A stretch of DNA of 64,000 nucleotides from Gammaproteobacteria bacterium (lineage in GTDB: Bacteria > Pseudomonadota > Gammaproteobacteria > Ga0077536), in contig JAUIFX010000001.1 in assembly GCA_030429865.1 (NCBI GenBank), positions 2,190-66,189 on the forward strand. Reading direction: 5' to 3'. The notes below the pieces were generated by a model. It saw only the letters and a program-made list of their open reading frames with translations, had not been told where the DNA came from and did not search any database. Each line of letters starts with the position of its first letter. Position 1 is the stretch's first letter. The position numbers and the translations under genes were made by a program. Of this stretch, positions 6,750 to 27,716 are shown piece by piece.

Positions 6750-6915
6750 GACGTGTCCTTCCTGCGGCTGTTTCGCATGGCTCAGATGACGCGATTATAC
6801 CGGCCGCGGGGCATGCCGAGGGCATTTCCACAACACATGCACGGGTAACGCGCGGCGCCCGGCACGATCGGGTAGCATCGGGTTCCCGCCCAGGGATCGA
6901 CGAGGCTCAAGCCCC

Positions 6916-7785
6916 ATGAACACGGCCCACCCGGCTCCGAGCGAGCTGCCGGCATGGCTCTATTGGCAGGAAGCGGCGCCGATAGACAGCGTCGAAGCGC
7001 CCACGCGCGAAGCCTTCGTCGAGCGCTGGGGCGCGCCCGGCCTGCCGGTCAAGCTCGGCGGCCTGACCGACGCGTGGCCCGCCCGTGAACGCTGGTCGGT
7101 GGCCTTCTTCCGTCGCGAGCACGGCGCCTGTGACGTCACCGTCGAGGCGCGCGCTGCCGCCGGCGGTACGCGCAGTGTACGCCTCGCCGATTACCTGGCG
7201 ACACTCGACGGGCCGACGGGAAACGAGGCCTGGTACCTGAAGGACTGGGTCTTCCGCGAGCAGGCGCCGGCCCTCGCCGACGACTACCGCGTACCCGCCC
7301 AATTCCCGGACTATTTCGCCGAACTCGAGCCGGCGCTGCGCCCCGGTTACAGCTGGATCTACATCGGCCCCCGGGACTCCGCATCCAACTTCCACCGCGA
7401 CGTCGCCGGCACCAGCGCGTGGAACGCGCTGATCCGCGGCCGCAAGCTGTGGCTGTTCTTTGCGCCCGACGAACACGCCGCGGCCTACGACAACTCGCTC
7501 GACGCGTTCGTACGCGACCGCAGCCCGGATCCACGCCTCGCTGCGCGACGACCGCTCTACTGCATCCAGGAACCGGGCGAGATCGTATTCACACCGTCGC
7601 TGTGGTGGCACCAGGTCTACAATCTCGAGACGTCGATCGCCGTGACCGAGAACTTTGCCGACGACTGCAATCTCAAGCACGTGCTGCGCGGCTTGCGCGA
7701 GCGTCCCGAGGGCCGCCATACGGCACTTGCGCTGGCGCTGCTGGTCGGCTGCCGCCGCCCGCGCCCGATTGGAGCGCGGCAGTGA
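6916..7785 (+). CDS. JmjC/cupin-4-like hydroxylase-fold protein
   Basis: 289 aa with ...SWIYIGPRDSASNFHRDVAGTSAWNALIRGRKLWLFF...FTPSLWWHQVYNLETSIAVTENF, characteristic of the JmjC/cupin fold. Confidence 0.6.
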   Translation: MNTAHPAPSELPAWLYWQEAAPIDSVEAPTREAFVERWGAPGLPVKLGGLTDAWPARERWSVAFFRREHGACDVTVEARAAAGGTRSVRLADYLATLDGPTGNEAWYLKDWVFREQAPALADDYRVPAQFPDYFAELEPALRPGYSWIYIGPRDSASNFHRDVAGTSAWNALIRGRKLWLFFAPDEHAAAYDNSLDAFVRDRSPDPRLAARRPLYCIQEPGEIVFTPSLWWHQVYNLETSIAVTENFADDCNLKHVLRGLRERPEGRHTALALALLVGCRRPRPIGARQ

Positions 7786-7838
7786 CCTGTGGCAGCATGA
7801 GCGCCGTGTCGCCTCCGGCACGCGACGAGTAACCGCCT

Positions 7839-8210
7839 GTGAGCAATTCCAACGACGATGACCGCACGGTCGTGGTGAACCCGGCCTCGCTGCCGCCGCG
7901 CGTGCCCGATGAGGATGACGACGCCACGCCGTCCGATCGCACCGTCATCATGAAACCGTCGCAGCGCGCGCGCGAGGCGGCCGCGGCGCTCAATGCCGAA
8001 CGCCGCCGGCAGGAAAAGGCGAGCGCGGCAGAAGCGGCGGGCGAGGCCGTCGACTTCGACGTCACCCAGGGCATCGTCGCCGAAACGCCGGACGACGCCG
8101 TCGCGCCGCCGCGGGCGGCGGGCGGCAAGGGCATGCCCTGGGTGTTCGGATTCGTCGTCGGCGCGGTCGTCATGATCGGCGTCATCGTCGCCGTGCTCGC
8201 ACTGCTCTGA
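7839..8210 (+). CDS. Hypothetical acidic protein with C-terminal transmembrane anchor
   Basis: GTG start; Asp/Glu-rich N-terminus; single C-terminal hydrophobic helix WVFGFVVGAVVMIGVIVAVLALL. Start codon uncertain. Confidence 0.35.
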   Translation: MSNSNDDDRTVVVNPASLPPRVPDEDDDATPSDRTVIMKPSQRAREAAAALNAERRRQEKASAAEAAGEAVDFDVTQGIVAETPDDAVAPPRAAGGKGMPWVFGFVVGAVVMIGVIVAVLALL

Positions 8211-8268
8211 ACACGCGCTCGCGACGACGGCCGGGCCACGCGGCATCCCGGGCGCACCTGCCGGTCCG

Positions 8269-9633
8269 ATGAGCGAGCGCCTGCGCCTGATTCCCAGTGC
8301 CGATGTCGCCACCCTGGGCGCACATTGCTACCTTTTCGATCGCGCCGCGCTGCACGAAAACGTGGTGTCGGTGCCGACCCAGCGCGTTTCGCAGCGCATG
8401 CGCGAGGTCGTGCGGCGCATCCGCGCCGCGTGGCCCGACCATGCGCCACACCCGTACGGCGCCTTCGAGGCCCTGTTCGACAGCGCGGCGGAACGCAACG
8501 TGCTGGCGCAGCTGGCGCGTGCCGGTTACCTCGAGGCGGTGCCGCCGGTGGCGCCGGCACCCGGCGGCACGGCGGCGCGGAGCGGACACGCGGAGACCGG
8601 CGAGGCCACCGATCCGGCGGCGCACTTCCGCGAACGTGTCCTGCGCCACTTCTTCAAGCGCCCCGCGTTCTTCCACCTGCCGGAACAGATCGATGACGAC
8701 GACTGTGACGTTGCGCTCGTCGGCGTGCCGATTTCCTCGACGCTGGTCTCGAGCGGCACCGTCGACGCGCCCGCACGCCTGCGCCGCGACAGCCAGCGCG
8801 CCGGCTTCTGGTTCGACTTCCATGCCGACGGCGTCTATACCGAGACCGGCTGCGACGACAGTCCGCCGCGCCTGATCTGCGCGGGGGTGCGCGCGAAGGA
8901 CTTTGGCGACATCGGCAGCGACTGCCGCACCGTCGGCGAACTGTTCGCCCACGCGCGGCAGCTCGTCGACACGCGGCTCGTCCCGCATGGCATCCGCCCG
9001 TTGTTCATCGGGGGCGATCACGCGGTGACGTTCCCGCTCGTCGATGCCTACCTCCATCACCACCCGGGACTCGTCCTGATCCATCTCGATGCGCACAACG
9101 ACCTCTTCTACACCGAGCGGGTCGAGTTCAACCATGCCGGCCCGGTGCACGGTTTGCTCGTCCACTCCGGGCTCGACAAAGTGCTCTCACTCGGACTGCG
9201 CACCATCGGGGATCCCCGCGTCGGCCCCTACAAGCGCCTGGCCGCGAGCGGTGCGCTGCGCGAACGCGCGCACCTCTACTCGCTGCGGGCACTGGAACGC
9301 TGGCTCGACCGGCCAAGCGAGTTCCAGGCCCACCTGCGCGAATGCATCGGCGTTGACCGGCCGTGTTACCTCACCATCGATCTCGACGTACTGTCGGCCG
9401 ACTGCATCGCCGGACAGCTGTCGACCCCGGCAGGTCCCGGGCTCGGCTGGCACCAGCTGCTCGAGATGGTCCGCCTGGTGACGGAGACCTTCGACGTCGT
9501 TGCCTGCGACGTCGTCGAATTCAACCCGGATCACAAGGATCGCCCGGTCGACGATGCGCGCGAGATGACCGTCCTGCTGCTCGAGCTGATCGACGGACTC
9601 GCGCGCTGCGCGCGGCGCATCGTGCCGCCCTGA
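8269..9633 (+). CDS. Arginase/agmatinase/formiminoglutamase (ureohydrolase) family protein with ~150-aa N-terminal extension; candidate peptide arginase
   Basis: Ureohydrolase metal-binding motifs GGDHAVTFPLV, HLDAHNDL, TIDLDVLSADCIAG. Sits directly upstream of the NHLP precursor. Peptide-arginase role is inferred from context (OspR-type enzymes). Confidence 0.8.
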   Translation: MSERLRLIPSADVATLGAHCYLFDRAALHENVVSVPTQRVSQRMREVVRRIRAAWPDHAPHPYGAFEALFDSAAERNVLAQLARAGYLEAVPPVAPAPGGTAARSGHAETGEATDPAAHFRERVLRHFFKRPAFFHLPEQIDDDDCDVALVGVPISSTLVSSGTVDAPARLRRDSQRAGFWFDFHADGVYTETGCDDSPPRLICAGVRAKDFGDIGSDCRTVGELFAHARQLVDTRLVPHGIRPLFIGGDHAVTFPLVDAYLHHHPGLVLIHLDAHNDLFYTERVEFNHAGPVHGLLVHSGLDKVLSLGLRTIGDPRVGPYKRLAASGALRERAHLYSLRALERWLDRPSEFQAHLRECIGVDRPCYLTIDLDVLSADCIAGQLSTPAGPGLGWHQLLEMVRLVTETFDVVACDVVEFNPDHKDRPVDDAREMTVLLLELIDGLARCARRIVPP

Positions 9634-9963
9634 CGCCTGCGCTGCCGTGCACCACGCCGGGGCCGCCGTGACACGCCGCCAGGGCGTAACGGGCGATGTC
9701 CGGCAATACCTCGCCACTCGCTTCATCCGTTGTTGACGTGCCACCGGGGCCGTGCTCTCCTAGCCGGGCATCGGCAGTCAGCCCTCGGCTCCAGCGCTTC
9801 GGCGTCGACCGGTAGCGGGCAGCGGATGGCAGGGATGGTGCGCGCCCGGGGCCGCTCGACACGGCCTTCGACGCGACGCGATTAACGGGGCAGGTGCGTG
9901 CACACGCGCATCCGCGACGTCAGCCTTACGACGAAGAAAACCTGATAACGAGGGAGATAACAA

Positions 9964-10338
9964 ATGGCTCAATCACTCCAGCAAGTAGCCGAGCGCATTC
10001 ACAAGGTGAAAGAGGAAGTGGCCGTCCAGGCAGTCCAGGACGACGACTTCCGCGAAGCCCTGATGAGCAACCCGACTGCCGCCCTGTGCGAAGAGTACGG
10101 CCTCGAGCCGAGCTTCTTCGAGAACATCTCGGTGCGCGTCGAGGTCGAGAACCCGAACGAAGTGGTCATCGTGATCCCGGCCGAGGCGGCCGAGGAAGAA
10201 CTCAGCGACGAGCAGCTCGAGGCAGTCGCCGGAGGCGCCGCCTTCATCGCCGGTGTTGCGGCCGGTGCCGCGGTCATCAGCGCTGCCGCCGCTGCGGGGA
10301 CCATCGTGCAGAACACCCGCGCGGGACGCCGCTGGTAA
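9964..10338 (+). CDS. NHLP (nitrile hydratase leader peptide) family RiPP precursor
   Basis: 124 aa. Leader ...NPTAALCEEYGLEPSFFENISVRVEVENPNEVVIVIPAEAAEEELSDEQLEAVAGG matches the NHLP consensus, including the LSDEELEAVAGG double-Gly cleavage motif. Core AAFIAGVAAGAAVISAAAAAGTIVQNTRAGRRW. Strong SD (GAGGGAG) 7 nt upstream. Confidence 0.85.
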   Translation: MAQSLQQVAERIHKVKEEVAVQAVQDDDFREALMSNPTAALCEEYGLEPSFFENISVRVEVENPNEVVIVIPAEAAEEELSDEQLEAVAGGAAFIAGVAAGAAVISAAAAAGTIVQNTRAGRRW

Positions 10339-10430
10339 GCAACCAGGGACGCGCCGCCGGTTCCTGCTCACCCCGTCTCTCCAGGCATGGCGTGACGCGG
10401 CGAGGCGCGCGGCGAACGGCGCTACCAAGC

Positions 10431-10461
10431 GCCGGCGGCGGGCAGGAGGCCCGCCGCCGGC
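10431..10461 (+). terminator. Perfect 12-bp GC stem-loop downstream of the precursor gene (putative attenuator/partial terminator)
   Basis: gccggcggcggg-caggagg-cccgccgccggc, perfect inverted repeat with 7-nt loop, followed by GGUGAUGAUUUCCU. Lies between the precursor stop (10338) and the next ORF. Confidence 0.4.
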
Positions 10462-10493
10462 GGTGATGATTTCCTGAGCACGAGGCGCCTCGG

Positions 10494-10688
10494 ATGAGCC
10501 TGCGACCCCATAAACGCAACCGGATCCTGGCGCTTGCCTTCCTCGCGCTCGGCCTCACGTTCGCGGCGCTTGCCCTGGCCGGAGGCGAAGCACGACTGAC
10601 CCTGGGTCTGGCGGCGCTGACCAACCTGCTCGCGGCATTCGTGTTCTACCAGCAGCAGCGCGGCCGGGACGACTCGGGGGCCGACTAG
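10494..10688 (+). CDS. Small membrane protein (64 aa, two predicted TM helices)
   Basis: MSLRPHKRNRILALAFLALGLTFAALALAGG...LAALTNLLAAFVFYQQQRGRDDSGAD. Hydrophobic; immunity or accessory role is speculative. Confidence 0.35.
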   Translation: MSLRPHKRNRILALAFLALGLTFAALALAGGEARLTLGLAALTNLLAAFVFYQQQRGRDDSGAD

Positions 10689-10983
10689 ACCGTCCGCGCG
10701 CGCCGCGCGCCGCTCCGCGAGACCCGACGATGACTGCTTTCGCGCCCGACGCCGGGGCCTGCCGCTGGTCGACGCGCTGGCGTTGCCGTGCGCCAGGGCC
10801 TGCACCGTCAGCCCGGCGCGGGCGGGCCGCGGTGCATCACGGAGACCGTATGCCGAAACCATCGGGCGCCAGCACCGGCGTCGCGCGCAGGATTCCCCGG
10901 GTGCGCGCCGTGCCGCCCGGCTGCCCGCCAGCGAGCCGCCGGCACGCTTCGGCCGCCGCGCGCGGCTGGACGACCCGGGCCGC

Positions 10984-12162
10984 ATGAGCGGCTTGGACTC
11001 CGGGCGCCGGACTGCCGTCGACGCGCGCAGTCCGCACGACTTCAGCGTGGCCGACTACCTGCGCCCCCTCGCACGCGACCTGCCGCCAGCGCTGGTCGCG
11101 GCCGCGGCGCGCGATGCGATCATCGACCTCGCCGCGCAGCTGCCGGGCGCGATCACGAGCTTCTGCGGCTTCGAATGTCCACTCGGCAGCGTCGAGGCCC
11201 GCGCCGACTTCCTGCTCTGCAGCACGCGCGAAGAAGGCCATGCCAGCGTGCTCGCGGGTACGCACGGCGAGAGCGCACTCGCGCCCGCGCTGCGCGCGCT
11301 GCCGGCCTGGCAGCGCGTCGCGGAATTCTCCCGCGCATGGCTCGGCGGGGATGGCCTGCTTGCCGACCACCTCATGAACACCTGGCTCGAGTTCGACATC
11401 GGCCGCGACGCCGAGGCGCTCGCCGCGCCGAGCATGTTCTTCGGCACCCACCCTCCGCCGCCCGGCGCCGCTTCGCGCGCCCAGCTCGATGTCCTGCTCG
11501 CGGCACTGGCCGTGCTCGATCCGCCGGCCGTGCTGGGTCACCGTCGGCGCGCACTGGAAGCCCTGCTGGGAGCACTGCCGCCGGGCTGTCACGTGTTCCA
11601 GGTCGGTGCGATGTGGTCACGCGGTCAAGCGGCGGTACGGCTGTGCCTGCGCGGCGTCGAGCGTTCGGCCGTACCGTCCCTGCTCGGCGCGCTCGACTGG
11701 CCGGGATGCCGTGAAGACGTCGCCGTCCTGCTCGACACCGTGGGCGCACACGCGAGCCGCGTCGACGTCGATCTCGATCTCGGTGACCAGGTCGGTCCCA
11801 AGCTCGGCCTCGAGTGTTACTTCGGTACGGATGCCGGCAACGCCGCACGCCTCGCCGCGCTGACCGCGGCGCTCGTGCGCCACGGCGCGTGCACGCCGGC
11901 CGAGGCCGCGGCGCTCGATGCCTACCAGGGACTGACCCTGCAGGATGCCGCCCCGGCCGACTGGCCGCCTCATCTCGCCGCGCTCGCGCGTGCCGGCGGC
12001 CGCGGGCTGAGCAGCGCGCTGTGCCGCTGGGTGCACCACGTCAAGCTCGTGCACGAACCCGGCGCGGCACTGAGCGCGAAAGCCTACCTCGCCGTCGAGC
12101 ATCACCTGCTGGACCGGCGCCAGCTGCGCGCGCACATCGACGCCATGCGCAGCGGCGCCTGA
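10984..12162 (+). CDS. Hypothetical protein (392 aa), first gene of the translationally coupled modification operon
   Basis: Internal ATG (MSGLDSGRRTAV...) chosen because the upstream part of the track ORF (from 10783) is R-rich. No family recognised. Stop lies 6 nt before the halogenase start. Confidence 0.5.
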   Translation: MSGLDSGRRTAVDARSPHDFSVADYLRPLARDLPPALVAAAARDAIIDLAAQLPGAITSFCGFECPLGSVEARADFLLCSTREEGHASVLAGTHGESALAPALRALPAWQRVAEFSRAWLGGDGLLADHLMNTWLEFDIGRDAEALAAPSMFFGTHPPPPGAASRAQLDVLLAALAVLDPPAVLGHRRRALEALLGALPPGCHVFQVGAMWSRGQAAVRLCLRGVERSAVPSLLGALDWPGCREDVAVLLDTVGAHASRVDVDLDLGDQVGPKLGLECYFGTDAGNAARLAALTAALVRHGACTPAEAAALDAYQGLTLQDAAPADWPPHLAALARAGGRGLSSALCRWVHHVKLVHEPGAALSAKAYLAVEHHLLDRRQLRAHIDAMRSGA

Positions 12163-12168
12163 TCCCCG

Positions 12169-14727
12169 ATGCACGGCCCTTCCCCCGAGTACGACCTGGT
12201 CGTCGCCGGCGGCGGCCCCGCCGGCACCACGCTCGCCACGCTGGTCGCACGTGGCGGCCATCGTGTCCTGCTGCTCGAAGCAAACCGCTTTCCCCGCTAC
12301 CAGATCGGCGAGTCCCTGCTGCCGGCGACCTTCAACGGCCTGTTCCCGCTGCTCGGTATCGACGCCGACCCCGGCCGGCTGGGCGCACCGGTGCTCAAGC
12401 GGGGAGCGACGTTTCACTGGGGGCGCGACGACGACCTGTGGACGATGAACTTCGGCGGCGCGCCGGACGACACCGAACCCGCGCCCGACTGGCCGACGGC
12501 GTTCAACGTGCGCCGCGAGGTCTTCGACGACGTGCTGCTGGGCGCCGCCCGCGCGGCCGGTGTCGAGGTCCGCGAGGGCGCCCGCGTCACCGCTATCGAC
12601 GCCGACGGGGAACGCGTGCGCGGCGTCGAGGTGGGCAGCGACGACGGCACCCGCTGGCACGCGCGCGGCCGCTTCGTCGCCGGCGCAACCGGCCAGGGCT
12701 GTCCACTCGCGGCGCACGTCGGCACGCGCCAACCCTCGGTGTTCTTCCGCAACGCCTCGGTCTTCGGCTACTTCCATGGCGGCGCACGCCTGCCGGGCGC
12801 GCTCGCCGGCAACGTGCTGCTGGAAGCCTTCGACCAAGGCTGGGCGTGGTACATCCCGCTCAACGACGAACTGACGAGCGTCGGCGTGGTGCTGCATCAC
12901 CCGCACACGCAGCGTCTCGGCGGCGACCGCGAGGCCGCGTTCCGCGACAGCCTCGCGCGCTGCACCTACATCGACGGCTACCTGCGCGGAGCGCGTCGTG
13001 CCACCACGCCGCCCTACGCCGGGCTGCGCGTGCGTTCGGAGTTCTCCTACACGCACGCGCGCTTCTGGCGCGCAGGTGCGCTGCTGGTCGGCGACAGCGC
13101 CTGCTTCGTCGACGTGATTCTCTCCTCGGGCGTACACCTGGCGACGTTCGGTGCACTGCAGGCGGCGCGCGCTCTCAACGCCGTGCTCGACGGCGAATTG
13201 CCCGAGCGCCTCGCGCTCAACGAGTTCGAGCTGCGCTACCGTCTCGAGTTCACCCGCTTCTACCAGGGGCTGCTCGGCCTGCACGACATGGCCCACGATG
13301 GCGCCACCTACCGCGAATGGCTGCGCGGGATGCTGCGGCGTACCCAGGGCGTCTACCTCGACGACGCGGCGGCGCCGCCGGCGCAGCGCCGCCGCACCTG
13401 GCAGGCGCTGGCATGGCTGCGCAAGCAGAACGCGCAGCTGGTGGCGTCGACCGCGCCGCCCGCAATGGATGCCGCGGCCGCGCTGCCCGCGATCGCCGGT
13501 GAGCTGCTCGTGCATGCCGATGGACTGCGCTTCGCGCGCGCCGCCGAACAGACCGATGCCGGCGACGCGCCCGATCCGCGGGTCGACACGCCGCTCTACG
13601 ATTACGGCAAGCTGCACGCCAGCGCCGCTCCCTACCTGCAGGCCTGTCCCGACGGCGTCGACGGTGCGCTCGCGCTGGTCACGGCCGCGCGCAGCCGTGG
13701 CATCCACCTGCGCGTACGCGGCAGCGGGCACACCTTCAGCGGCGCGAGCCTGCCGCGCGAAGGCGAGGTGCTGGTGCGTACCAACGGCCTCGATCACTAT
13801 CACTTCCACGCGCCTGGCCGGCTCGTCGCCGGCGCCGGCGCCATGGTCTGGGACATCCGCGATCTCGCCCGCGACCACGGCTTCGACCTGCCCGTCTATA
13901 ACGGCGGTTGGGCCGGACCGACCCTCGGTGGCTACATCTGCGCCGGCGGGTTCGGCAAGAGCGGCCTGTCGGAGGATGCCGGCGGGCTGTGGGAGAACAT
14001 CTATGCCGTGCGTCTCGTCGACGGGCATGGGACGCTGCGCACGATCACGCGCGACGACGACGCCTTCCCGTGGCTGTTCGGCAGCTCCGGCCAGCTCGGC
14101 CTGCTGGTCGATGCCGAGCTGCGCCTGGTGCCGTACGCCGATGCCACGGGCGCGCCGCGCTACCCGGTCGATGAACGTGGCCGCGTACCGCGCCGCCAGG
14201 TCGATGACCCGCGCCTCAACGACGTCGCGCCACGGCCCGACGACGACAAGCGGCTGTTCTGGTTCACCTTGCTGGTGTCACCGGCGGAGGAAGCCGACGC
14301 CTGGGCCGGCCTCGAGCAGCTCGTCCTCGATCACCGCGACGTGCTCGTGCCGGATGGCGGCTGGGCCGGCCCGCAACTCGACGGTGCGCCGATCGGCTAC
14401 CGCTACGTGATCCGTTTCCACGAGTTCAACCCGCCGCTGGTCTACCCGCGCGCCGAGACGTTCCTGTGCATCGGCGTGATGAGCCTGCTCGCCAGTGGCG
14501 ATGCCGGGAGCGATGCGCGGCTGCGTGCGATCGAGCGCGATTTCGTCGCACTCGCGCGGACGCGCCGGCTGCGCCTGTACCTGCAGGCGGAAAACATCAC
14601 CGGGCAGGTAGACCAGCGCCGTTATTACGGGCGTGCGACCTGGGAACGCTTTCTCGAACTCAAACGCGACTTCGACCCCGCGGCGCTGTTCAATCGCGAC
14701 GTCGTCTTCCCTCCCGATGCGCTATGA
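12169..14727 (+). CDS. Fusion protein: flavin-dependent (tryptophan-type) halogenase N-terminal domain plus FAD-linked oxidase (PCMH-type FAD-binding) C-terminal domain
   Basis: N-terminus DLVVAGGGPAGTTLA (GxGxxG), GESLLP, and the halogenase signature WxWxIP (FDQGWAWYIPL). C-terminal half has RVRGSGHTFSGASL FAD-binding motif and oxidase-like body. Single uninterrupted 852-aa ORF. Confidence 0.8.
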   Translation: MHGPSPEYDLVVAGGGPAGTTLATLVARGGHRVLLLEANRFPRYQIGESLLPATFNGLFPLLGIDADPGRLGAPVLKRGATFHWGRDDDLWTMNFGGAPDDTEPAPDWPTAFNVRREVFDDVLLGAARAAGVEVREGARVTAIDADGERVRGVEVGSDDGTRWHARGRFVAGATGQGCPLAAHVGTRQPSVFFRNASVFGYFHGGARLPGALAGNVLLEAFDQGWAWYIPLNDELTSVGVVLHHPHTQRLGGDREAAFRDSLARCTYIDGYLRGARRATTPPYAGLRVRSEFSYTHARFWRAGALLVGDSACFVDVILSSGVHLATFGALQAARALNAVLDGELPERLALNEFELRYRLEFTRFYQGLLGLHDMAHDGATYREWLRGMLRRTQGVYLDDAAAPPAQRRRTWQALAWLRKQNAQLVASTAPPAMDAAAALPAIAGELLVHADGLRFARAAEQTDAGDAPDPRVDTPLYDYGKLHASAAPYLQACPDGVDGALALVTAARSRGIHLRVRGSGHTFSGASLPREGEVLVRTNGLDHYHFHAPGRLVAGAGAMVWDIRDLARDHGFDLPVYNGGWAGPTLGGYICAGGFGKSGLSEDAGGLWENIYAVRLVDGHGTLRTITRDDDAFPWLFGSSGQLGLLVDAELRLVPYADATGAPRYPVDERGRVPRRQVDDPRLNDVAPRPDDDKRLFWFTLLVSPAEEADAWAGLEQLVLDHRDVLVPDGGWAGPQLDGAPIGYRYVIRFHEFNPPLVYPRAETFLCIGVMSLLASGDAGSDARLRAIERDFVALARTRRLRLYLQAENITGQVDQRRYYGRATWERFLELKRDFDPAALFNRDVVFPPDAL

Positions 14728-16195
14728 CCCGAACCTGCCGCGGGCCGTGTTTCTGGGCCCCTCTTTCGCGCCCGCCGCGGCGGCCAGGCTGCTGCCCGCG
14801 AACTACTATCCACCGGTGCGCATGGGTGACGTCTATCGCCTGCTCGCCAGCGGCGTCGAGACCATCGTCATCATCGACGGCGTGTTCCACCAGAGCACGC
14901 CGGTATGGCAGCGCGAGATCCTCGCCGCGCTGGAAGCCGGTATCCGCGTCGTCGGCGGTGCCAGCATGGGCGCGCTGCGCGCCGCCGAACTCGCGCCCTA
15001 CGGCATGGAAGGCATCGGTACGATCTACGGCTGGTACCGCGATGGCGTGATCGATGGCGACGACGAGGTCGCGCTGGTCCACGCCGACGCCGAGCTCGAG
15101 TACCAGGCGCTGTCGGAGCCGCTCGTCAACATGCGCTACAATCTGGCGCGCGCGCGCGCGAACGCCGTCATCGACGCCGCCGCGCACGACGCGTTGTTGG
15201 CCGCGGCGCAACAGCGCTGCTTCACCGAGCGCAGCTGGCGCCGCCTCGAAGCGGCGCCCGCCTGGCAGGCTCTGGCGCCTGCGCGCCGCGCGGCGCTTGC
15301 CGCCTTCCTTGCGAACGATTATGTCGATCTCAAGCACGCCGACGCGCGAGCCGTGCTCGAACACGTGCGCCGCAGCACCGCAGACAGCCGTTCCGCGCTA
15401 CGCCCGCGCAGCCGGTGGTCGTATCCCGGCAGCGCCCGCGTACGTCTGCAGGCCGCGCTGGCGCCGGACGGCAGCCTGGTCGACGGCGCCACCGTGCTCA
15501 CCAGGGCACTCGCGGCCGACGACGCCTGGGTCGCTCCCTGTCTGCGCGAGGCGCACGCGCGCTGCTACCTCGAGGACTGGCTCGAGCGCTGCGCCGCGAT
15601 GCCGCCGGCGGAGACGCTGGCGCCGTTCCTGGCCAGGGTGACGCCTGCGCAGGCAAGCGGTGACGCAGCCGCGTTCGCGCGCGCCAACGGCCTGACCCGC
15701 GACGAACTCGACGCCGCGCTCGCGGCGCGTGCACGCCATGCCTGGCTGCTGGCCGGGGAAAGCGCCATGCCCGGGACGGACGACGCCGCGCACGACGCCC
15801 TCCTCGCCGCCCTCGGCGAGACGGCGGCGAGCGCGCGCGCGGCGGCACGCCGCGACGCCTGCCTCGCCGCCTGGGCGCGCCGGCGCGGCATCAGCTGCCC
15901 CGCAGCCGAGCACGACCGGCGCGCGCCGCACTGGTGTGCCGCGCACGGACTGTCCGCGGCGGCAGTCGACGCCGATGCGCGTCTCGCGCGCGCCCTCGCC
16001 GAACGGGTCCTTGCCGCCTGGCTGCTCGACCAGGAACCGGCACACTTCGGTTTCGAACGTTTCTCTGCCGACGCCGAGCTGCTGCTCGCGCTCAAGCTCG
16101 ATGGCCGCCACGCGGCGCTCGTCGCCGACCTGACCGGCGTGCGTGCCGCACCGGCACCACCGCACAAGGACAGCAGCGCCGCGGGGGCCGCATGA
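14717..16195 (+). CDS. tfuA: TfuA-like protein (YcaO partner for thioamidation) with long Ala-rich C-terminal extension
   Basis: N-terminal ~230 aa match the TfuA core (VFLGPSFA...GDVYRLL...IVIIDGVFHQSTPVWQREILAALEAGIRVVGGASMGALRAAEL...GIGTIYGWYRDGVIDGDDEVALVH). Overlaps the halogenase stop by 11 nt and the ycaO start by 4 nt (ATGA). Confidence 0.75.
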   Translation: MRYDPNLPRAVFLGPSFAPAAAARLLPANYYPPVRMGDVYRLLASGVETIVIIDGVFHQSTPVWQREILAALEAGIRVVGGASMGALRAAELAPYGMEGIGTIYGWYRDGVIDGDDEVALVHADAELEYQALSEPLVNMRYNLARARANAVIDAAAHDALLAAAQQRCFTERSWRRLEAAPAWQALAPARRAALAAFLANDYVDLKHADARAVLEHVRRSTADSRSALRPRSRWSYPGSARVRLQAALAPDGSLVDGATVLTRALAADDAWVAPCLREAHARCYLEDWLERCAAMPPAETLAPFLARVTPAQASGDAAAFARANGLTRDELDAALAARARHAWLLAGESAMPGTDDAAHDALLAALGETAASARAAARRDACLAAWARRRGISCPAAEHDRRAPHWCAAHGLSAAAVDADARLARALAERVLAAWLLDQEPAHFGFERFSADAELLLALKLDGRHAALVADLTGVRAAPAPPHKDSSAAGAA

Positions 16196-17358
16196 ACCAC
16201 GCCTTCGCCTACACGCGCGGCACCTACCGTATTGCGACCCCGCAGGCCACGCTGGCGCGCATCGCGCCGCTGCTGCCGGCATGCGGCATCACGCGCGTCA
16301 CCGCGGTCACCCACCTCGATCGCCTCGGCGTGCCGGTTTACTGCGCGATCCGCCCGAACGGCGTCGTCCTGCAGGTCTCCAACGGCAAGGGTCTGAGCGC
16401 CGACTGCGCGCGCGTCTCGGCGCTGATGGAAGCGATCGAGCTGCACCACGCCGAGAACCCGCCGCCAGGCGCGCTGCGCGAAGCCACCCAGGCCGAACTC
16501 GAAGCCGCCGGCGAACGCGTGCTCGCGCCGCCGGCCCTGCCCGGCTACAACGGGGCCTACTTCGCGCGGGACTTCCGCCTGGAATGGATCCGAGGAACGG
16601 CGCTGGATGACGGCGCCGCCGCCTGGGCCCCGGCCAGCCTGGCCTGCTTCGCGCGCTCGCCGGCACCGCTCGTCACCGACACCAACGGCCTGGCCTCCGG
16701 CAATCACCTGCTCGAAGCGAGCCTGCACGCGCTCTACGAGCTGCTCGAGCGCGACGCCCTGGCCGGTCTCGGGCAGGATGGCCGGCTCGCCATCCGCGAA
16801 CGCTGCCGCGTCGTCGACACCGCTTCGATCACCGATACCGATCTGCACGCGCTGATCGCCGCCATCGCCGCGCGCGAGAGCCACGTCGTGCTGCTGTGGG
16901 TGCCGAGCCGCGTCCCGGTGCACACGTTCTGGGCGGTACTGCTCAACCGCCGCAGCGGCGCGGCACCGGTATCGACGCTCAACCTGGGCGCCGGCTGCCA
17001 CCACGACCCGAAGGTCGCCGCGGCGCGTGCCGTGACCGAGGCGGCACAGTCGCGCCTGAGCTTCATCCATGGCGCGCGCGAGGATCGCGTTGCCAAGCCC
17101 GTCGACCGCGCGCGCGCGGTTTCGGAAAGCCCCGCCTATCGCTATTTCGATGGCCTCGAGGCCGACACCGCGTGGCACGAGCTGCTGCCTGCCGCGCATT
17201 TGCCCGGCGATCTCGAGCAGGCGCACGACTGGCTGGTCACGGCTTTGTCGGGCACCGGCATCCGCGCGTGGCGCTTCGACCTCACCCGCGCCGAACTCGG
17301 TATCCCGGTAGTCAAAGTCGTCGCGCCCGGCCTCGCCTTCAATGGACGCCTGCTGTGA
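16192..17358 (+). CDS. ycaO: YcaO domain protein (ATP-dependent backbone amide activation; thioamide or azoline forming)
   Basis: MNHAFAYTRGTYR...; YcaO ATP-binding motifs SALMEAIELHHAE and LHALYELLERDAL (ExxERD), GLASGN. Internal ATG coupled to the tfuA stop. Confidence 0.85.
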   Translation: MNHAFAYTRGTYRIATPQATLARIAPLLPACGITRVTAVTHLDRLGVPVYCAIRPNGVVLQVSNGKGLSADCARVSALMEAIELHHAENPPPGALREATQAELEAAGERVLAPPALPGYNGAYFARDFRLEWIRGTALDDGAAAWAPASLACFARSPAPLVTDTNGLASGNHLLEASLHALYELLERDALAGLGQDGRLAIRERCRVVDTASITDTDLHALIAAIAARESHVVLLWVPSRVPVHTFWAVLLNRRSGAAPVSTLNLGAGCHHDPKVAAARAVTEAAQSRLSFIHGAREDRVAKPVDRARAVSESPAYRYFDGLEADTAWHELLPAAHLPGDLEQAHDWLVTALSGTGIRAWRFDLTRAELGIPVVKVVAPGLAFNGRLL

Positions 17359-18169: not shown

Positions 18170-20185
18170 CTAGCGCAGCCCGGCGAAGAACGCGGGTGGG
18201 GGCACATCGCCGGCCAGCCTCAGCAGAAGCCGCTCGCCCGCCGCGCGCGTATCGAGTTCGAGTTCACCACGGCGCCCGTCGCCGTCGGCACGCACGCGCA
18301 GGCTGACGTGGCGCCCCGCGTCGTGCAGCGCGGTGACCACGGTCCAATCCGCCGGGGCCGGGGGCGGCGGCGCCTCCGGATCGCAGGACTCGCGCACCAG
18401 CGAGAGCGCCGTGATACCTGCGGCGAGACGGTCGAGCAGCGCCTGGTCGGTGCCCGGCAGGGCGACCCGGGTGACCGTCGCCGAGAGGGCCTGGCCGAGT
18501 TCCGGGGCGGTCAGCTCGACGCGCTCGGCGCGTGCGTGGCGCAGCGCGAGCAGGCGCACGAGACCGTTGACGAAAGCCGAGGCGCGCAGCGTCATGGGCA
18601 GCCCCGCATGCCGATCGAGGCTCTCGATGGCCGCGCTCAGCGCGTGCTCGACACTGAGCAGGCGGCGCGCCGTCGGCCCGAAGGCGTGCGCACGAGTCAG
18701 CTCGCGAAAGCGCGCGAGGTCGAAACCAAGCGATGCCAGGGGCGCTGCAGCGTCGTTGAGCCGCGCCAGCGCGGCGCCTTCGCCGAGGGCCCCCGCCGTG
18801 TAGTCATCCATCACGTCGCAGGCCGCGGTCAGCACCGGCAGCACCGTCTCCTCGCCGGCGATGCACGCACCCGCGGCCAGCGCCTCCTGCGCCGCTGCCC
18901 AGGCGCCGGCGTCGTCGCGCTCGAGCGCGGCCAGCGAGGGCACCACCTGGGCCAGGCTGAGCTGCTCGACCAGGCTCCACGCGGCCAGCCACCAGTCGGT
19001 CAGGGCAGCGCTGCGGAAGCCGCCGTAGCTGCCGTGCACGAGGTGGTCGTGGACCTGGACCAGGCTGTGCTGCAGGCGCGCGACCGGCGCGAAGCGCGCG
19101 GTCGAGAAATCGCCGGCAGCCCGCGCCTCGAGCAGGCAGCCGGCGAGCAGGTGCAGACTCTGGAACGTGTTGAGCAGGCCACGCGAGTAGAGCGCATCGA
19201 CGTTGCCGGCCGGCGCGCCGAGCAGGCACACGCGCTCACCGACGACCCCCGCCGGCACGGTTCTGGCCCCGCGACTGCTCATCCACGGCCGCACCGGCGC
19301 GGCCTTGCCGAACTGCGCGGCCAGCGCCGGGTAACGCGCCAGCAGCGCGGACCACTCTTCGCCCGGCGACGCATCCCCCGGCGGGTGCACGCGGTTGTCG
19401 AAATTGACGCCGACGCTGACCAGGCGGTTGCGCGAGCGCGGGTGGTTGCCGAACGGGATCACCCACATCCAGGCGCCGTCGAGGATGTGATGCAGGGTGC
19501 CGTGGTGCCAGGGCAAGGCCGGCGGCGGCGCGGCGGCGCAGTCGTCGAAGGGCCGCACGCCGGTGAGGTGGGTGAAGATCACGCGCGAATCGGTCCGCAG
19601 CGGCGCCGTGCCCAGCGCCGCGACCCGCGGCAGCGTGGCGCCGTGACCGACGCAGTCGACGAGGTAACGGCCGTGCACGCGCCCGGCGCTGGTCGCGAGG
19701 CAGACGCCATCGTCCGCCACCGCTTCCTCGCCGCGGATTTCCGCCGTCAGCAGGGTGCAGCCGGCCTCGACGGCGCGCGCGCACAGCCAGGCATCGATGT
19801 CCTGGCGATACAAGTGCGCCTCGAGCACGTCCTCGGCGTAATTGACGGCGATATTGGCCCACCACTGCGCCTCGGTACGGGCGCTGCCGGCGGCATGGCG
19901 CACGAAGCCGAAGGACTTCTTAACCCCGGAGCTGGGCCCGATCTCGTCGTGGATGCGGTTCAGGTTGGCGATCGCGGCCAGTTCCTCCGCGCCGTAGCGC
20001 TCGGCCAGCACGCGCATCCACAGCACGGTCGGCTTGAGCAGGGATTCGCCGAGCGCGAAGCGCGGGTGCGGCGCCCGCTCGACGATCACGGTCGAGACCC
20101 CCTGGCGCGCAAGCACCAGTCCGAGCGCGCAACCGGTGATGCCGGCACCAAGAATGATGACCTCGCAGGACGCCGCTTCCATCAT
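18170..20185 (-). CDS. Flavin-dependent halogenase (second copy) with ~250-aa C-terminal extension
   Basis: MMEAASCEVIILGAGITGCALG (GxGxxG), GESLLKPT, and WxWxIP signature (GAWMWVIPF). ATG at 20185 chosen over the upstream GTG at 20224. Confidence 0.8.
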   Translation of the reverse strand: MMEAASCEVIILGAGITGCALGLVLARQGVSTVIVERAPHPRFALGESLLKPTVLWMRVLAERYGAEELAAIANLNRIHDEIGPSSGVKKSFGFVRHAAGSARTEAQWWANIAVNYAEDVLEAHLYRQDIDAWLCARAVEAGCTLLTAEIRGEEAVADDGVCLATSAGRVHGRYLVDCVGHGATLPRVAALGTAPLRTDSRVIFTHLTGVRPFDDCAAAPPPALPWHHGTLHHILDGAWMWVIPFGNHPRSRNRLVSVGVNFDNRVHPPGDASPGEEWSALLARYPALAAQFGKAAPVRPWMSSRGARTVPAGVVGERVCLLGAPAGNVDALYSRGLLNTFQSLHLLAGCLLEARAAGDFSTARFAPVARLQHSLVQVHDHLVHGSYGGFRSAALTDWWLAAWSLVEQLSLAQVVPSLAALERDDAGAWAAAQEALAAGACIAGEETVLPVLTAACDVMDDYTAGALGEGAALARLNDAAAPLASLGFDLARFRELTRAHAFGPTARRLLSVEHALSAAIESLDRHAGLPMTLRASAFVNGLVRLLALRHARAERVELTAPELGQALSATVTRVALPGTDQALLDRLAAGITALSLVRESCDPEAPPPPAPADWTVVTALHDAGRHVSLRVRADGDGRRGELELDTRAAGERLLLRLAGDVPPPAFFAGLR

Positions 20186-20264
20186 GTTTCCGAGAGTATT
20201 GCCGCGCGCCAGTATCCGGGGCACCGTGCGCGAATGCCAGTGCCGTGAGCAGACCCGATCGAGA

Positions 20265-20310: not shown

Positions 20311-20416
20311 TTGTTTTATTTGATACATCGCGTATCGTAAATCATCCTGCGCGAGCCTCGTGAAGGCGCACCACGCGCGCTGTGCGGCCACTGCCAACGA
20401 CAACCGGGGAGCGTCC

Positions 20417-20953
20417 ATGCGCAAGGTATTGTTCATTTTCGGTGAACTCACCGACGCCGACACCGAGTGGATGTGCGATGCCGGCCAGGCCCTCACCCTG
20501 GCGACCGGCGACCGTTTGATCGAGGCCGGCCACCCGGTGCACGAGCTCTCGCTGGTACTGCGCGGTGAACTCGGCGTGTACGCCGGCGAGCGCGAAATCG
20601 CGCTGCTCGGCGAAGGCGAGATCGTCGGCGAGCTGTCGTTTCTCGATGCGCGCCCGCCTTATGCGTCGGTCGTTGCCACCGAACCCTCGATCGTTTTGCG
20701 CGTACCGCACGAAGCGGTGCACGCGCGTTTCGCCCGCGACCCCGGCTTCGCCGGCCGTTTCTATCGAAGTCTCGGCATTTTCATGGCCAGCCGCTTGCGC
20801 CAGACGGTCGGGCAGCTCGGCGTGCTCGGCGATGACGACGAACTCGCCGAGGACGCGACCAGCGTCGACGAAATCGACCCCGACGTGCTCGATCGCTCGG
20901 CCATCGCCGGGCGCCGCTTCGAGCGTCTGCGCACCCGCCTCGGAGTCGAATGA
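20417..20953 (+). CDS. Cyclic nucleotide-binding domain protein (bacteriocin-export-associated type)
   Basis: cNMP-binding beta-roll motif GEIVGELSFLD...PYASVVATEP. SD GGGGAG 7 nt upstream. ATGA overlap with the downstream HlyD gene. Confidence 0.7.
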   Translation: MRKVLFIFGELTDADTEWMCDAGQALTLATGDRLIEAGHPVHELSLVLRGELGVYAGEREIALLGEGEIVGELSFLDARPPYASVVATEPSIVLRVPHEAVHARFARDPGFAGRFYRSLGIFMASRLRQTVGQLGVLGDDDELAEDATSVDEIDPDVLDRSAIAGRRFERLRTRLGVE

Positions 20954-22392
20954 GCGTGGCCGACGACAAAGACATCTTCCGTAAGGAAGCCCTCGACCAG
21001 CTGAGCTCGCCCGAACAGCTCGAGCAACTGCTCGAGGTGACCACCCGCAAGGCCTGGGTCAGCCTCTACACCATTGCCGGTGCGCTCGTCGCGATTCTCC
21101 TGTGGAGCGTGTTCGGCCAGATTCCGATCACGGTCGACGGCTCCGGCATCTTCGTCTACCCGAGACGGGTCGTGTCGTTCCAGTCGCCGGCGCCGGGACA
21201 GGTCGTGAGCATCGACGTCAACGTCGGTGATTTCGTCGACAAGGGCGACATCATCGGCACCCTCAACCAGCCCGACCTCGCGCAGGAACTCGAACAGGAA
21301 CGCGTGCGCCTGGCCGAAGCACGCGCCCAGGTACTGCTCAAGGGCGATGCCCTCGAACAGCGCCTGGCGCTCGAACGCGAATCGATCGTGCGCAAGCGCG
21401 AGCTGCTCGCGCAGCGCATCGAGTCGCTGCAGCGGATCTCCGAGGCGCAGAAGAAGCGCAATGCGGGCTACCTCGCGCAGCAGAGCAAGAACCTCGCCGA
21501 GGCGCGCAGCACCCAGCAGAAGCTCGGCCGCGCGCTGGAGGAACGTTTCGAGAGCTACGAGCGCCTGCGCGCCGAAGGGCTCTCCTCCGACGACAGCGTG
21601 CTCGCCGCACGCCAGCGCTACATGGACAACCAGGTGCAGCGCTCCGAGCTCGACCTGCGCGCCCAGGAACTCGAACTGCGCCGACTGGAGAACGAGCAGG
21701 CCTACCAGCAATCGCTAGACCGCATCGAGGAGTTCCGCACCCAGCTGCAGGATCTCGAGATCCGCGAGCGCGAGCTGGACCAGCAGGCGCTGGAGACCAG
21801 CGCCAGCGCGAAGCAGCGTATCCAGGAGATCGAACGCAACATCGCGCGCCTCGAAAGCCAGCTCGCGACGCGCAGCCAGATCGTCAGCGAACATGCCGGC
21901 CGCATCCTCGAGATCACGACCGGTCCCGGCCAGATCGTCAATGCCGGCCAGCGCATCGGCTCGATCGAGACCGAGGATGCCGCGGGTGAGCTGATGGGCG
22001 TGGCCTTCTTCGCCGTCGGCGACGGCAAGAAACTGGCCGCCGACGGCGTGCTGCGCCTCACCCCGACGACGGTGGAACGCGAACGCTACGGCAGCATCGT
22101 CGCCACCATCACGAGCGTCTCGGCCTTCCCGGTCACGGCGGATGCCATCAGCTCGATGATCGGCAACGCCGAGGTCGCCCAGGAAATCAGCCAGGGCCGC
22201 AGCGTCATCCAGGTCGTCGCCCGCCTGCACGAGGACGCGGACGCCCATACCGGCTACGAATGGACCTCCGGCAAGGGTCCGCCCGGACCGCTCACCGCCG
22301 GCACCACGGCCAGCGCGCGCGCGACGGTCGAATACCGCCGCCCGATCACGTTCGTCATCCCGATCCTGCGCAGGTGGACCGGCGTTGGCTGA
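20950..22392 (+). CDS. HlyD-family secretion (membrane fusion) protein, NHLM-bacteriocin-system type
   Basis: N-terminal TM (VSLYTIAGALVAILLWSVF), long coiled-coil (LAQELEQERVRLAEARAQ...), C-terminal beta domain. Coupled to flanking genes. Confidence 0.8.
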   Translation: MSVADDKDIFRKEALDQLSSPEQLEQLLEVTTRKAWVSLYTIAGALVAILLWSVFGQIPITVDGSGIFVYPRRVVSFQSPAPGQVVSIDVNVGDFVDKGDIIGTLNQPDLAQELEQERVRLAEARAQVLLKGDALEQRLALERESIVRKRELLAQRIESLQRISEAQKKRNAGYLAQQSKNLAEARSTQQKLGRALEERFESYERLRAEGLSSDDSVLAARQRYMDNQVQRSELDLRAQELELRRLENEQAYQQSLDRIEEFRTQLQDLEIRERELDQQALETSASAKQRIQEIERNIARLESQLATRSQIVSEHAGRILEITTGPGQIVNAGQRIGSIETEDAAGELMGVAFFAVGDGKKLAADGVLRLTPTTVERERYGSIVATITSVSAFPVTADAISSMIGNAEVAQEISQGRSVIQVVARLHEDADAHTGYEWTSGKGPPGPLTAGTTASARATVEYRRPITFVIPILRRWTGVG

Positions 22393-24637
22393 GCAAGCAG
22401 CGCCTCCGGCCAAGAAGGCCCCGCCCGAGATCAAGCACCCGCGCGTGCGCACGCCGTCGGTGCTGCAGCTCGAGGCGGTCGAGTGCGGCGCCGCGGCGCT
22501 GGCGATGATCCTCGGCTATTACAAGCGCGTCGTGCCGCTGACCCAGCTGCGCCGCGAGTGCGGCGTCTCGCGCGACGGCAGCAAGGCCTCCAACGTGGTC
22601 CGCGCGGCGCGCCGCTACGGCATGGAGGCGAAGGGCTTCACGAAGTCGATCAAGAAGCTCTACGACATCAAGCCGCCGTTCATCGTGTTCTGGAACTTCA
22701 ATCACTTCGTGGTGTGCGAAGGCTTCGGCAAGGATCGTGTCTACCTCAACGACCCCGCCGTCGGTCATCGCAGCGTGACGCACAAGGAGTTCAACCGCGG
22801 CTTCACCGGGGTCGTCCTGGTGATGAAGCCGGGACCCGAGTTCACGCCGGGCGGGCGGCTGCCCAGCGTGGTCGGCAGCATCCGCTCGCGCCTTGCCGGA
22901 TCCGGCCGCGCGCTCGGCTTCTGCTTCCTCACCGGGCTGCTGCTGGTGATTCCGGGGCTAGCCGTGCCGGCCTTCAACCAGGTCTACATCGATGCGGTGA
23001 TCCTGCAACAGCGTACCGACTGGCTGCGACCGCTGCTGCTTGCGATGGGCGTGTCCGGGGTACTCACCGCGGCGCTGCATTTCATGCAGTTCCGCTTCCT
23101 GCGCCGGCTCAAGATCAAGCTTTCGATCAAGTTCTCGAGCAAGTACCTGTGGCACCTGCTGCACCTGCCGGCCAGCTTCTACGCGCAACGTTTCGCCGGC
23201 GAGATCGCCAACCGCAGCCAGATCAACACGAAGCTCGCCGACCTGCTCTCGGGACGCCTCGCGACGACCGCGATCGACGTCACGATGATGGGCTTCTATG
23301 CCGCACTGATGTTCTACTACGACGTCATTCTGACCCTCATCGGCATCGGCTTCGCGATCATCAACGCCTTCGTGCTCAAGGTCATTTCGCAAAAGCGCGT
23401 CGAGACCAACATGCGCGTGCTGACCGAGTACGGCAAGGCCCAGGGCACCGGCATGGCCGGCCTGCAGAGCATCGAGACGATCAAGGCCGGCGGCCTGGAA
23501 TCGGGCTTCTTCGGCGTCTGGGCGGGCTATTACGCCAAGGCCGCCGTGGCACGCCAGGATCTCGAGATGTCCAACCAGTGGCTGGACATCACGCCGACCC
23601 TGCTGACCGCGCTGACCAGCGCCGCGATCCTGTGTTTCGGTGGCCTGCGCGTGATGCACGGCGAGATCTCGATCGGCATGCTGGTCGCCTTCCAGAGCCT
23701 GATGGCGAGCTTCCTCGCGCCGATCAACGAACTGCTCAGCCTCGGCGGCACGTTCCAGGACATGCGCGGCGACCTCGAGCGCGTCGACGACGTGCTCGAC
23801 AACGACACCATGCCGACGCCCGAGGTCGAGGAACTCGTCGACGAGAACGGCGATAGGGTCACGCGCCTGAAGGGCTACCTCGAGCTGCGCGACGTGACCT
23901 TCGGCTACAGCCCGCTGGACAAGCCACTGTTCGAGAACTTCAATCTCAGCGTCGCACCGGGCCAGCGCGTCGCGCTGGTCGGTGGCAGCGGCTCGGGCAA
24001 GTCGACGCTCGCGCGCATGATCTGCGGCGAGTACGAACCGTGGTCCGGCCAGGTCCTGCTCGACGGCCTGCCGCGCAGCCAGATCCCGGCCGACGTCCTG
24101 CGCAACTCCTTCGCCGTGGTCGACCAGGACATCAGCCTGTTCGAGGGCAGCGTGCGCGACAACCTCACGCTGTGGGACGACACGGTGCCGGAGATCAACC
24201 TGCGTCATGCGCTGCAGGACGCGGCCGCCCACGAATTCGTCATGGCCATGGCCGGCGGTCTCGACGCCAAGCTCGCCGAGGGTGGCATCAACCTGTCCGG
24301 CGGCCAGCGCCAGCGCCTGGAAATCGCGCGCTCGCTGGTACTCAACCCGGCCGTCCTGGTCTTCGACGAAGCGACCAGCGCCCTCGACGCCGATACCGAG
24401 GGCGTGGTGATGGAGCGGCTGCGCATGCGCGGCTGCAGCGCGGTACTGGTCGCACATCGCCTGAGCACCGTGCGCGACAGCGACCTCATCCTCGTGCTCA
24501 AGTCCGGCCAGGTCGTCGAACAGGGCACACACGAGGAGCTGTGGGTGCTCGATGGCGAGTACGCCCGCCTGATGCGCGCCGACCAGGAACCCATCGTCAC
24601 CATCAGCGAAGAAGCAGACGACGACGGCGATGACTGA
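22385..24637 (+). CDS. ABC transporter with N-terminal C39 peptidase domain (leader-peptide-cleaving exporter)
   Basis: C39 active-site region LQLEAVECGAAALAMILGYY; six-TM permease; Walker A GGSGSGKST; ABC signature LSGGQRQR; Walker B VLVFDEATSALD. TTG start overlapping the HlyD stop. Confidence 0.9.
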   Translation: MAEQAAPPAKKAPPEIKHPRVRTPSVLQLEAVECGAAALAMILGYYKRVVPLTQLRRECGVSRDGSKASNVVRAARRYGMEAKGFTKSIKKLYDIKPPFIVFWNFNHFVVCEGFGKDRVYLNDPAVGHRSVTHKEFNRGFTGVVLVMKPGPEFTPGGRLPSVVGSIRSRLAGSGRALGFCFLTGLLLVIPGLAVPAFNQVYIDAVILQQRTDWLRPLLLAMGVSGVLTAALHFMQFRFLRRLKIKLSIKFSSKYLWHLLHLPASFYAQRFAGEIANRSQINTKLADLLSGRLATTAIDVTMMGFYAALMFYYDVILTLIGIGFAIINAFVLKVISQKRVETNMRVLTEYGKAQGTGMAGLQSIETIKAGGLESGFFGVWAGYYAKAAVARQDLEMSNQWLDITPTLLTALTSAAILCFGGLRVMHGEISIGMLVAFQSLMASFLAPINELLSLGGTFQDMRGDLERVDDVLDNDTMPTPEVEELVDENGDRVTRLKGYLELRDVTFGYSPLDKPLFENFNLSVAPGQRVALVGGSGSGKSTLARMICGEYEPWSGQVLLDGLPRSQIPADVLRNSFAVVDQDISLFEGSVRDNLTLWDDTVPEINLRHALQDAAAHEFVMAMAGGLDAKLAEGGINLSGGQRQRLEIARSLVLNPAVLVFDEATSALDADTEGVVMERLRMRGCSAVLVAHRLSTVRDSDLILVLKSGQVVEQGTHEELWVLDGEYARLMRADQEPIVTISEEADDDGDD

Positions 24638-27551: not shown

Positions 27552-27716
27552 GTGATGACGTCGCCGGCCGGCCCCACCGGCCGCGCATTGCACCACGGGC
27601 TGCCGCCCACCGCCTGTCCCCGGATCCTCGATAATCAGTATCGATATACTAAAATTAGATAGTTATATCGCTTTTCTCGTGTAAACTCTTACCTGATTCA
27701 GGCACGACGACATCCC

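Follow-up and report, generated by a model that had tools for sequence, protein, structure and literature searches.

A candidate peptide arginase combining a classical ureohydrolase with a RiPP-recognition-element-like domain in a gammaproteobacterial proteusin-type cluster

The 454-residue enzyme described here, encoded in a 64,000-nucleotide stretch of gammaproteobacterial DNA (the window; contig JAUIFX010000001.1), is probably a peptide arginase guided by the leader, with a classical binuclear-metal ureohydrolase of family PF00491 as its catalytic part. [quoted passage not shown] The supports computed directly are its domain architecture, the conservation of its catalytic residues, the distinctness of its clade, the gene neighbourhoods, gene fusions, and its displacement by a PF12640 enzyme in a related cluster. 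A sequence-only reading of this DNA had proposed a peptide arginase acting on the adjacent precursor. The proposal has gained weight from the recurrence of such genes beside NHLP precursors with conserved arginines and from the PF12640 replacement, both of which point to a peptide substrate. The features of the cluster are listed in Table 1.

Table 1. Features of the cluster and of the candidate peptide arginase, in window coordinates.
Feature	Coordinates	Strand	Basis or remark
JmjC/Cupin_8 Fe(II)/2OG oxygenase, likely partner, candidate ornithine hydroxylase	6916..7785	+	PF13621, PF02373
Small 123-aa protein with C-terminal TM helix	7839..8210	+	conserved in close relatives
RRE-like domain fused to PF00491 ureohydrolase, 454 aa, candidate peptide arginase	8269..9633	+	PF00491, AF2 model
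N-terminal beta3-alpha3 domain (aa 1-91), RiPP-recognition-element-like	8269..8541	+	AF2 model
Low-confidence Ala/Pro-rich linker, then short helix (aa 92-146)	8542..8706	+	model, homologue alignment
Catalytic ureohydrolase domain (aa 147-454)	8707..9633	+	invariant residues; closest folds
NHLP (proteusin-type) precursor, 124 aa	9964..10338	+	TIGR03793, family alignment
C-terminal R119-A-G-R122-R123-W124; R119 and R122 candidate arginase targets	10318..10335	+	precursor alignment
64-aa hydrophobic protein, possible immunity or export accessory	10494..10688	+	conserved in syntenic clusters
Conserved protein without Pfam or PDB match	10984..12162	+	orthologues in L002, L083, L091, L092
CndH/CmlS-type flavin halogenase fused to VAO/BBE-type FAD_binding_4 oxidase	12169..14727	+	PDB match, motifs
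TfuA	14717..16195	+	PF07812, 153.6 bits; start inferred
YcaO	16192..17358	+	PF02624, 221.8 bits; TIGR03266-like; start overlaps TfuA as ATGA
Conserved protein of about 250 aa	17342..18133	+	orthologues in all related clusters
Second flavin-dependent halogenase, PltM/CtcP type	18170..20224	-	6.5e-75
cNMP-binding regulator, HlyD, C39-peptidase ABC exporter, second ABC protein, OEP-LysM outer-membrane factor	20360..30053	+

Domain architecture and active site

The open reading frame runs from an ATG to a TGA with strong coding bias (GC3 0.86), and alignments with homologues begin at residue 1, which backs its start. PF00491 matches residues 147-424 (115.2 bits against a cutoff of 22, E 5e-33); therefore, some 146 N-terminal residues are extra, in agreement with the region of about 150 residues announced by the sequence-only reading. 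The three ureohydrolase motifs from which a competent active site had been expected are present (GGDHA at residues 248-252, DAHND at 274-278 and DLDVLSADC at 371-379), and the alignment of 40 sequences is consistent with that expectation. All six metal ligands (H251, D274, H276, D278, D371 and D373) are invariant in it, as are H289, T386, P387 and E417, the last of which aligns with the conserved acidic residue (Glu) of arginases.

The AF2 model (pLDDT 91.6, pTM 0.91) has the three-layer alpha/beta/alpha arginase fold and was matched by Foldseek to agmatinases and guanidino-acid hydrolases with an E-value of 1e-18 and target-normalised TM scores of 0.74-0.82. Of the solved folds, those of agmatinase, guanidinobutyrase and proclavaminate amidinohydrolase come closest to the catalytic domain (22-25% identity). 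The enzyme is a classical PF00491 ureohydrolase with an intact active site.

In the model, the N-terminal domain consists of strands at residues 4-7, 11-16 and 19-24 (plus 38-40) and helices at 42-54, 63-67 and 73-84, with pLDDT above 90. This is the topology of RiPP recognition elements (RRE), three beta-strands followed by three helices over about 85-90 residues, and it is on this predicted topology that the domain is called RRE-like. The PqqD/RRE profile PF05402 had no match to the enzyme N-terminus even at E<=10, and a Pfam search with the isolated N-terminal 145 residues likewise returned nothing useful at that threshold. The linker that follows falls below pLDDT 50 at residues 102-112, and its length and sequence differ between homologues.

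The clade, its precursors and a PF12640 counterpart

The clade to which the enzyme belongs is rare, with about 70 proteins in 29 representative clusters out of 1.84 billion. It is monophyletic in a tree built on the catalytic domain alone, and the N-terminal domain is present throughout, always fused to the ureohydrolase. Among the best 80 loci of a scan of genome contigs, the family comprised only the loci numbered L001-L004, the rest being mostly generic agmatinases; within these 80 loci, full-length relatives came from at least 4 of 185,579 GTDB species representatives.

Orthology to a primary-metabolism enzyme, named in advance as evidence against a peptide arginase, was not found. The enzyme lies below the NCBIfam equivalog cutoffs of agmatinase (TIGR01230, 80.8 against 174.3 bits), formimidoylglutamase HutG (TIGR01227, 55.7 against 229.15 bits) and arginase RocF (TIGR01229, 48.5 against 227.6 bits), and there is a steep break in E-values between family members (1e-50) and generic arginase-family proteins (1e-13). 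By these scores, this gap and the monophyly of the clade, the enzyme is not orthologous to agmatinase, HutG or RocF. No polyamine, histidine or arginine catabolic genes were present in the window's cluster or in several related loci. Judged by profile matches, it is not an OspR-type (PF12640) peptide arginase either: PF12640 had no match in the enzyme or in 40 aligned relatives, PF00491 being the sole match at E<=0.01.

The precursor is the next gene downstream and starts 330 bp past the arginase stop. Its reading as an NHLP precursor with an arginine-rich end holds, since it scores 59.4 bits with the NHLP leader model TIGR03793 (cutoff 50.9) and its core ends in TRAGRRW. The leader ends in AVAGG and the core comprises residues 92-124 (nt 10237-10335); the double-glycine site (AVAGG followed by AAF) is invariant in 17 related precursors. 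In the same 17 sequences, R119 and R122 of the C-terminal Q-N-T-R-A-G-R-R-W are each kept in 16, position 123 varies (R, K, S, Q or N), and W124 is invariant and always the final residue. The precursors linked to the clade share the ending Q-x-T-R-A-G-R-x-W-stop with its two near-invariant arginines. The core has no Cys and no Ser- or Thr-rich motif. Clade members adjoin NHLP precursors not only in the window but also at L001, L002, L081/82, L083, L089 and L091.

Further support comes from L092, a homologous TfuA/YcaO/halogenase cluster with orthologues of 11 cluster genes (29-58% identity) and without PF00491 and JmjC genes. Between its FAD_binding_4 and TfuA genes lies a PF12640 protein, which at 61.5 bits was also the positive control for the PF12640 search reported above, and which carries the motifs EEHHEAF, DEHAD and LDIDIDFFSS. 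The L092 precursors end in VRQRTGW and VRQGW. We interpret this arrangement as a non-orthologous displacement of the PF00491 arginase by a PF12640 peptide arginase, which supports a peptidyl Arg-to-Orn role for the PF00491 enzyme. It also narrows a claim of the sequence-only reading, which had seen in the window an extension of peptide arginases to a YcaO/halogenase context: the context is there, but L092 already places an OspR-type enzyme in it in sequence data. What is new is the type of enzyme and the fact that it is coupled to a JmjC hydroxylase; the YcaO/halogenase context is not. L092 can be regarded as a natural complementation experiment between two arginase types.

The proposed pathway and its alternatives

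In relatives, the JmjC gene found upstream here either adjoins the arginase gene or is fused to it. Tri-domain RRE-arginase-JmjC proteins were found in at least six cases (Halioglobus sp. HI00S01, L091 and five representative clusters), and the JmjC gene is absent near many RRE-arginase genes. The pairing mirrors that of biphenomycin biosynthesis, and by this analogy supports an arginase-then-hydroxylase order. There, the JmjC protein BipG is a gamma-ornithine hydroxylase that acts after the BipC arginase, only on the ornithine made by it, and is inactive on Arg (PMC12707348).

Other genes of the cluster are consistent with further tailoring and export. TfuA and YcaO are likely a thioamide-forming pair. 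The fused halogenase matches CndH (3e1t) at 4.5e-103 and has the Lys and GWxWxIP motifs; the second halogenase is conserved in L083, L089, L091 and L092. Because of NCBIfam matches, both flavoproteins were considered as QhpG-like Trp hydroxylases, and this was ruled out by PDB matches and motifs that identify them as CndH/CmlS and PltM/CtcP halogenases. The export set is also found in L083 and L092. The reading frame of the conserved protein without Pfam match reaches back to 10783, its likely start being that of Table 1, and Pfam searches with two conserved uncharacterised cluster proteins returned no informative match even at E<=10. The 123-aa protein, considered as an alternative substrate or partner, was rejected: it is low-complexity, TM-anchored, conserved in close relatives only, and shows no relationship to a 133-aa protein that precedes the Acidobacteriota homologue. 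Promoter and terminator sites in 6700-10900 were no more numerous than in shuffled controls. The window's cluster contains no radical SAM gene, and our literature search found no description of this cluster architecture.

We propose that the N-terminal beta3-alpha3 domain docks the NHLP leader, and that the catalytic domain would hydrolyse the guanidinium of R119 and/or R122, and possibly R123, to peptidyl ornithine and urea, which would lower the mass by 42.02 Da at each site. This step is proposed on the strength of the intact active site and of comparative genomics. The JMJD6-like JmjC oxygenase would then hydroxylate the new ornithine side chain, as suggested by the repeated fusion of the two genes and by the BipC/BipG pair; the lack of a JmjC gene in L092 indicates that hydroxylation would not be universal. 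TfuA-YcaO probably thioamidates the same peptide, which is probably halogenated too, most plausibly at the invariant C-terminal Trp, before the C39-ABC system would cleave after GG and export the product.

A bolder proposal, doubtful as it stands, is that the clade, often fused to a JmjC, consists of independently evolved, undescribed leader-guided peptide arginases giving (hydroxy)ornithine, and in the window marks a new proteusin subclass with an x-Orn-A-G-Orn-x-Trp tail. If true, a hydrophobic Ala/Gly-rich core would end in a tail containing ornithine or hydroxy-ornithine, thioamidated and halogenated, whose new delta-amine might undergo further reactions, for instance cyclisation onto a YcaO-activated backbone or onto the C-terminal Trp in its oxidised or halogenated form. 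Further RiPP classes would then be signalled by the members outside NHLP clusters (a Vibrio repeat peptide, a Tateyamaria B12-rSAM/JmjC cluster, loci of Acidobacteriota).

An unlikely alternative reverses the order, so that the JmjC protein hydroxylates peptidyl Arg first and the ureohydrolase accepts hydroxy-Arg or another pre-modified residue, for example one adjacent to a thioamide, to give hydroxy-ornithine. Among the structural relatives of the JmjC protein, the arginyl C3-hydroxylase JMJD5 ranks second (2.4e-17), and a fusion of arginase and JmjC fits either order. KgrD, the only characterised PF00491 peptide arginase, requires an earlier modification of its Arg (PMC12703449), and Ps_BipC likewise favours a pre-modified substrate; by the KgrD precedent, the window enzyme may in fact act on a modified Arg. 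However, the best PDB match of the JmjC protein is the lysyl hydroxylase JMJD6 (3.6e-32), ornithine being lysine-like, and the inactivity of BipG on Arg also speaks for arginase first. Moreover, the many RRE-arginase genes without a nearby JmjC, together with L092, suggest that hydroxylation is not a general prerequisite of the arginase step.

It is very improbable that the enzyme is an agmatinase-, guanidinobutyrase- or amidinohydrolase-like ureohydrolase of a free metabolite or non-ribosomal product, lying beside a precursor by chance. Its nearest solved structures are of that kind, the L088 member adjoins an NRPS-PKS, and a Vibrio relative lies near an Orn/DAP-decarboxylase-like gene. No precursor was recognised beside L088, near L004, or beside the Acidobacteriota members L003 and L084, which adjoin an M16 peptidase and an esterase, and therefore the family may not be restricted to RiPPs. 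Against a small-molecule substrate stand the scores far under every equivalog cutoff, a distinct clade in which the N-terminal domain is always present, repeated linkage to NHLP precursors, displacement by a peptide arginase in L092, fusion to a JmjC of protein-hydroxylase type, and a cluster without polyamine or arginine-catabolism genes. Least probable of all is that the enzyme attacks another peptide C-N bond, such as an amidine- or guanidine-like group made by YcaO or the FAD enzymes, or serves as a non-catalytic leader-binding scaffold: YcaO enzymes can form amidines and, in the Foldseek match list, the superfamily has diversified to guanidine, metformin and formiminoglutamate, but all arginase catalytic residues are invariant, E417 included, the precursors conserve Arg, and Arg-to-Orn conversion is the sole activity reported, in the literature found, for the PF12640 family that displaces the enzyme in L092.

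Comparison with known systems

The preferred reading, a leader-guided PF00491 peptide arginase, can be set against several described systems. As in the SrpI-type proteusin pathway, an NHLP precursor ending in Trp is accompanied by YcaO and a flavin-dependent halogenase, which in SrpI-type systems acts on the C-terminal Trp of the precursor (PMC10858898). Neither an arginase nor a JmjC gene is part of the srp cluster described in that work, in which YcaO acts on Cys as an azoline-forming cyclodehydratase; the pairing of the window YcaO with TfuA, and a core without Cys or a Ser- or Thr-rich motif, make thioamidation more likely here. SpeB agmatinase, guanidinobutyrase and proclavaminate amidinohydrolase match the catalytic domain best in both structure and sequence and share its metal ligands, but are single-domain enzymes of about 300 residues acting on free metabolites, whereas the window enzyme forms a separate clade with an extra N-terminal domain.

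KgrD, the Mn-dependent PF00491 peptide arginase of the enteropeptins of Enterococcus cecorum (PMC12703449, PMC10028609), is the sole described RiPP precedent for such an enzyme. In both cases a classical PF00491 enzyme is recruited to Arg of a RiPP precursor, here by prediction. KgrD works in a Firmicutes radical-SAM, sactipeptide-type pathway and needs a thiomorpholine-modified Arg, whereas the proteobacterial NHLP/TfuA-YcaO/halogenase cluster has neither a radical SAM gene nor Cys in the core. The RRE-like domain and the coupling to JmjC set the window enzyme apart from the published description of KgrD; the 99 homologues of the enzyme included no Enterococcus match. The BipC/BipG pair (also PbsE/PbsQ) resembles the window in combining an arginase and a JmjC oxygenase in a RiPP cluster. 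The biphenomycin arginase is, however, a separate PF12640 protein, while that of the window is of PF00491 type, carries an RRE-like domain and is fused to JmjC in several lineages; the NHLP precursor and the remaining pathway also differ.

Peptide arginases are sought-after tools for introducing ornithine into gene-encoded peptides. Those known are almost all PF12640 (UPF0489) proteins, such as OspR, FlmR, OhkR, BipC and PbsE, whose leader recognition is poorly understood. The sequence-only reading had likened the enzyme to these proteusin-type arginases. The likeness stands for the predicted role, peptidyl Arg to Orn and urea, for the association with NHLP/proteusin precursors, for the ureohydrolase superfamily and for the equivalent slot in L092, but it does not extend to the family. 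OspR-type motifs are EEH(N/H)EAF, DXHXD and LDIDLDYFSC (PMC10028609); the window enzyme has GGDHA for the first and DLDVLSADC for the last, and only its DAHND fits DXHXD. The structure 8BRP was not among the top 50 Foldseek matches of the model. OspR lacks a discrete N-terminal domain of RRE type, and its leader binding has been proposed to occur in a cleft of the dimer. A classical arginase with a discrete recognition-type domain would offer an alternative to the PF12640 enzymes that is modular and whose mechanism is easier to follow, and the natural JmjC fusions would amount to a one-protein module from Arg to hydroxy-Orn. The clade also offers an entry point for mining genomes for an uncharacterised proteusin family, probably thioamidated and halogenated, of uncultured marine and saline Gammaproteobacteria, and possibly for other RiPP classes.

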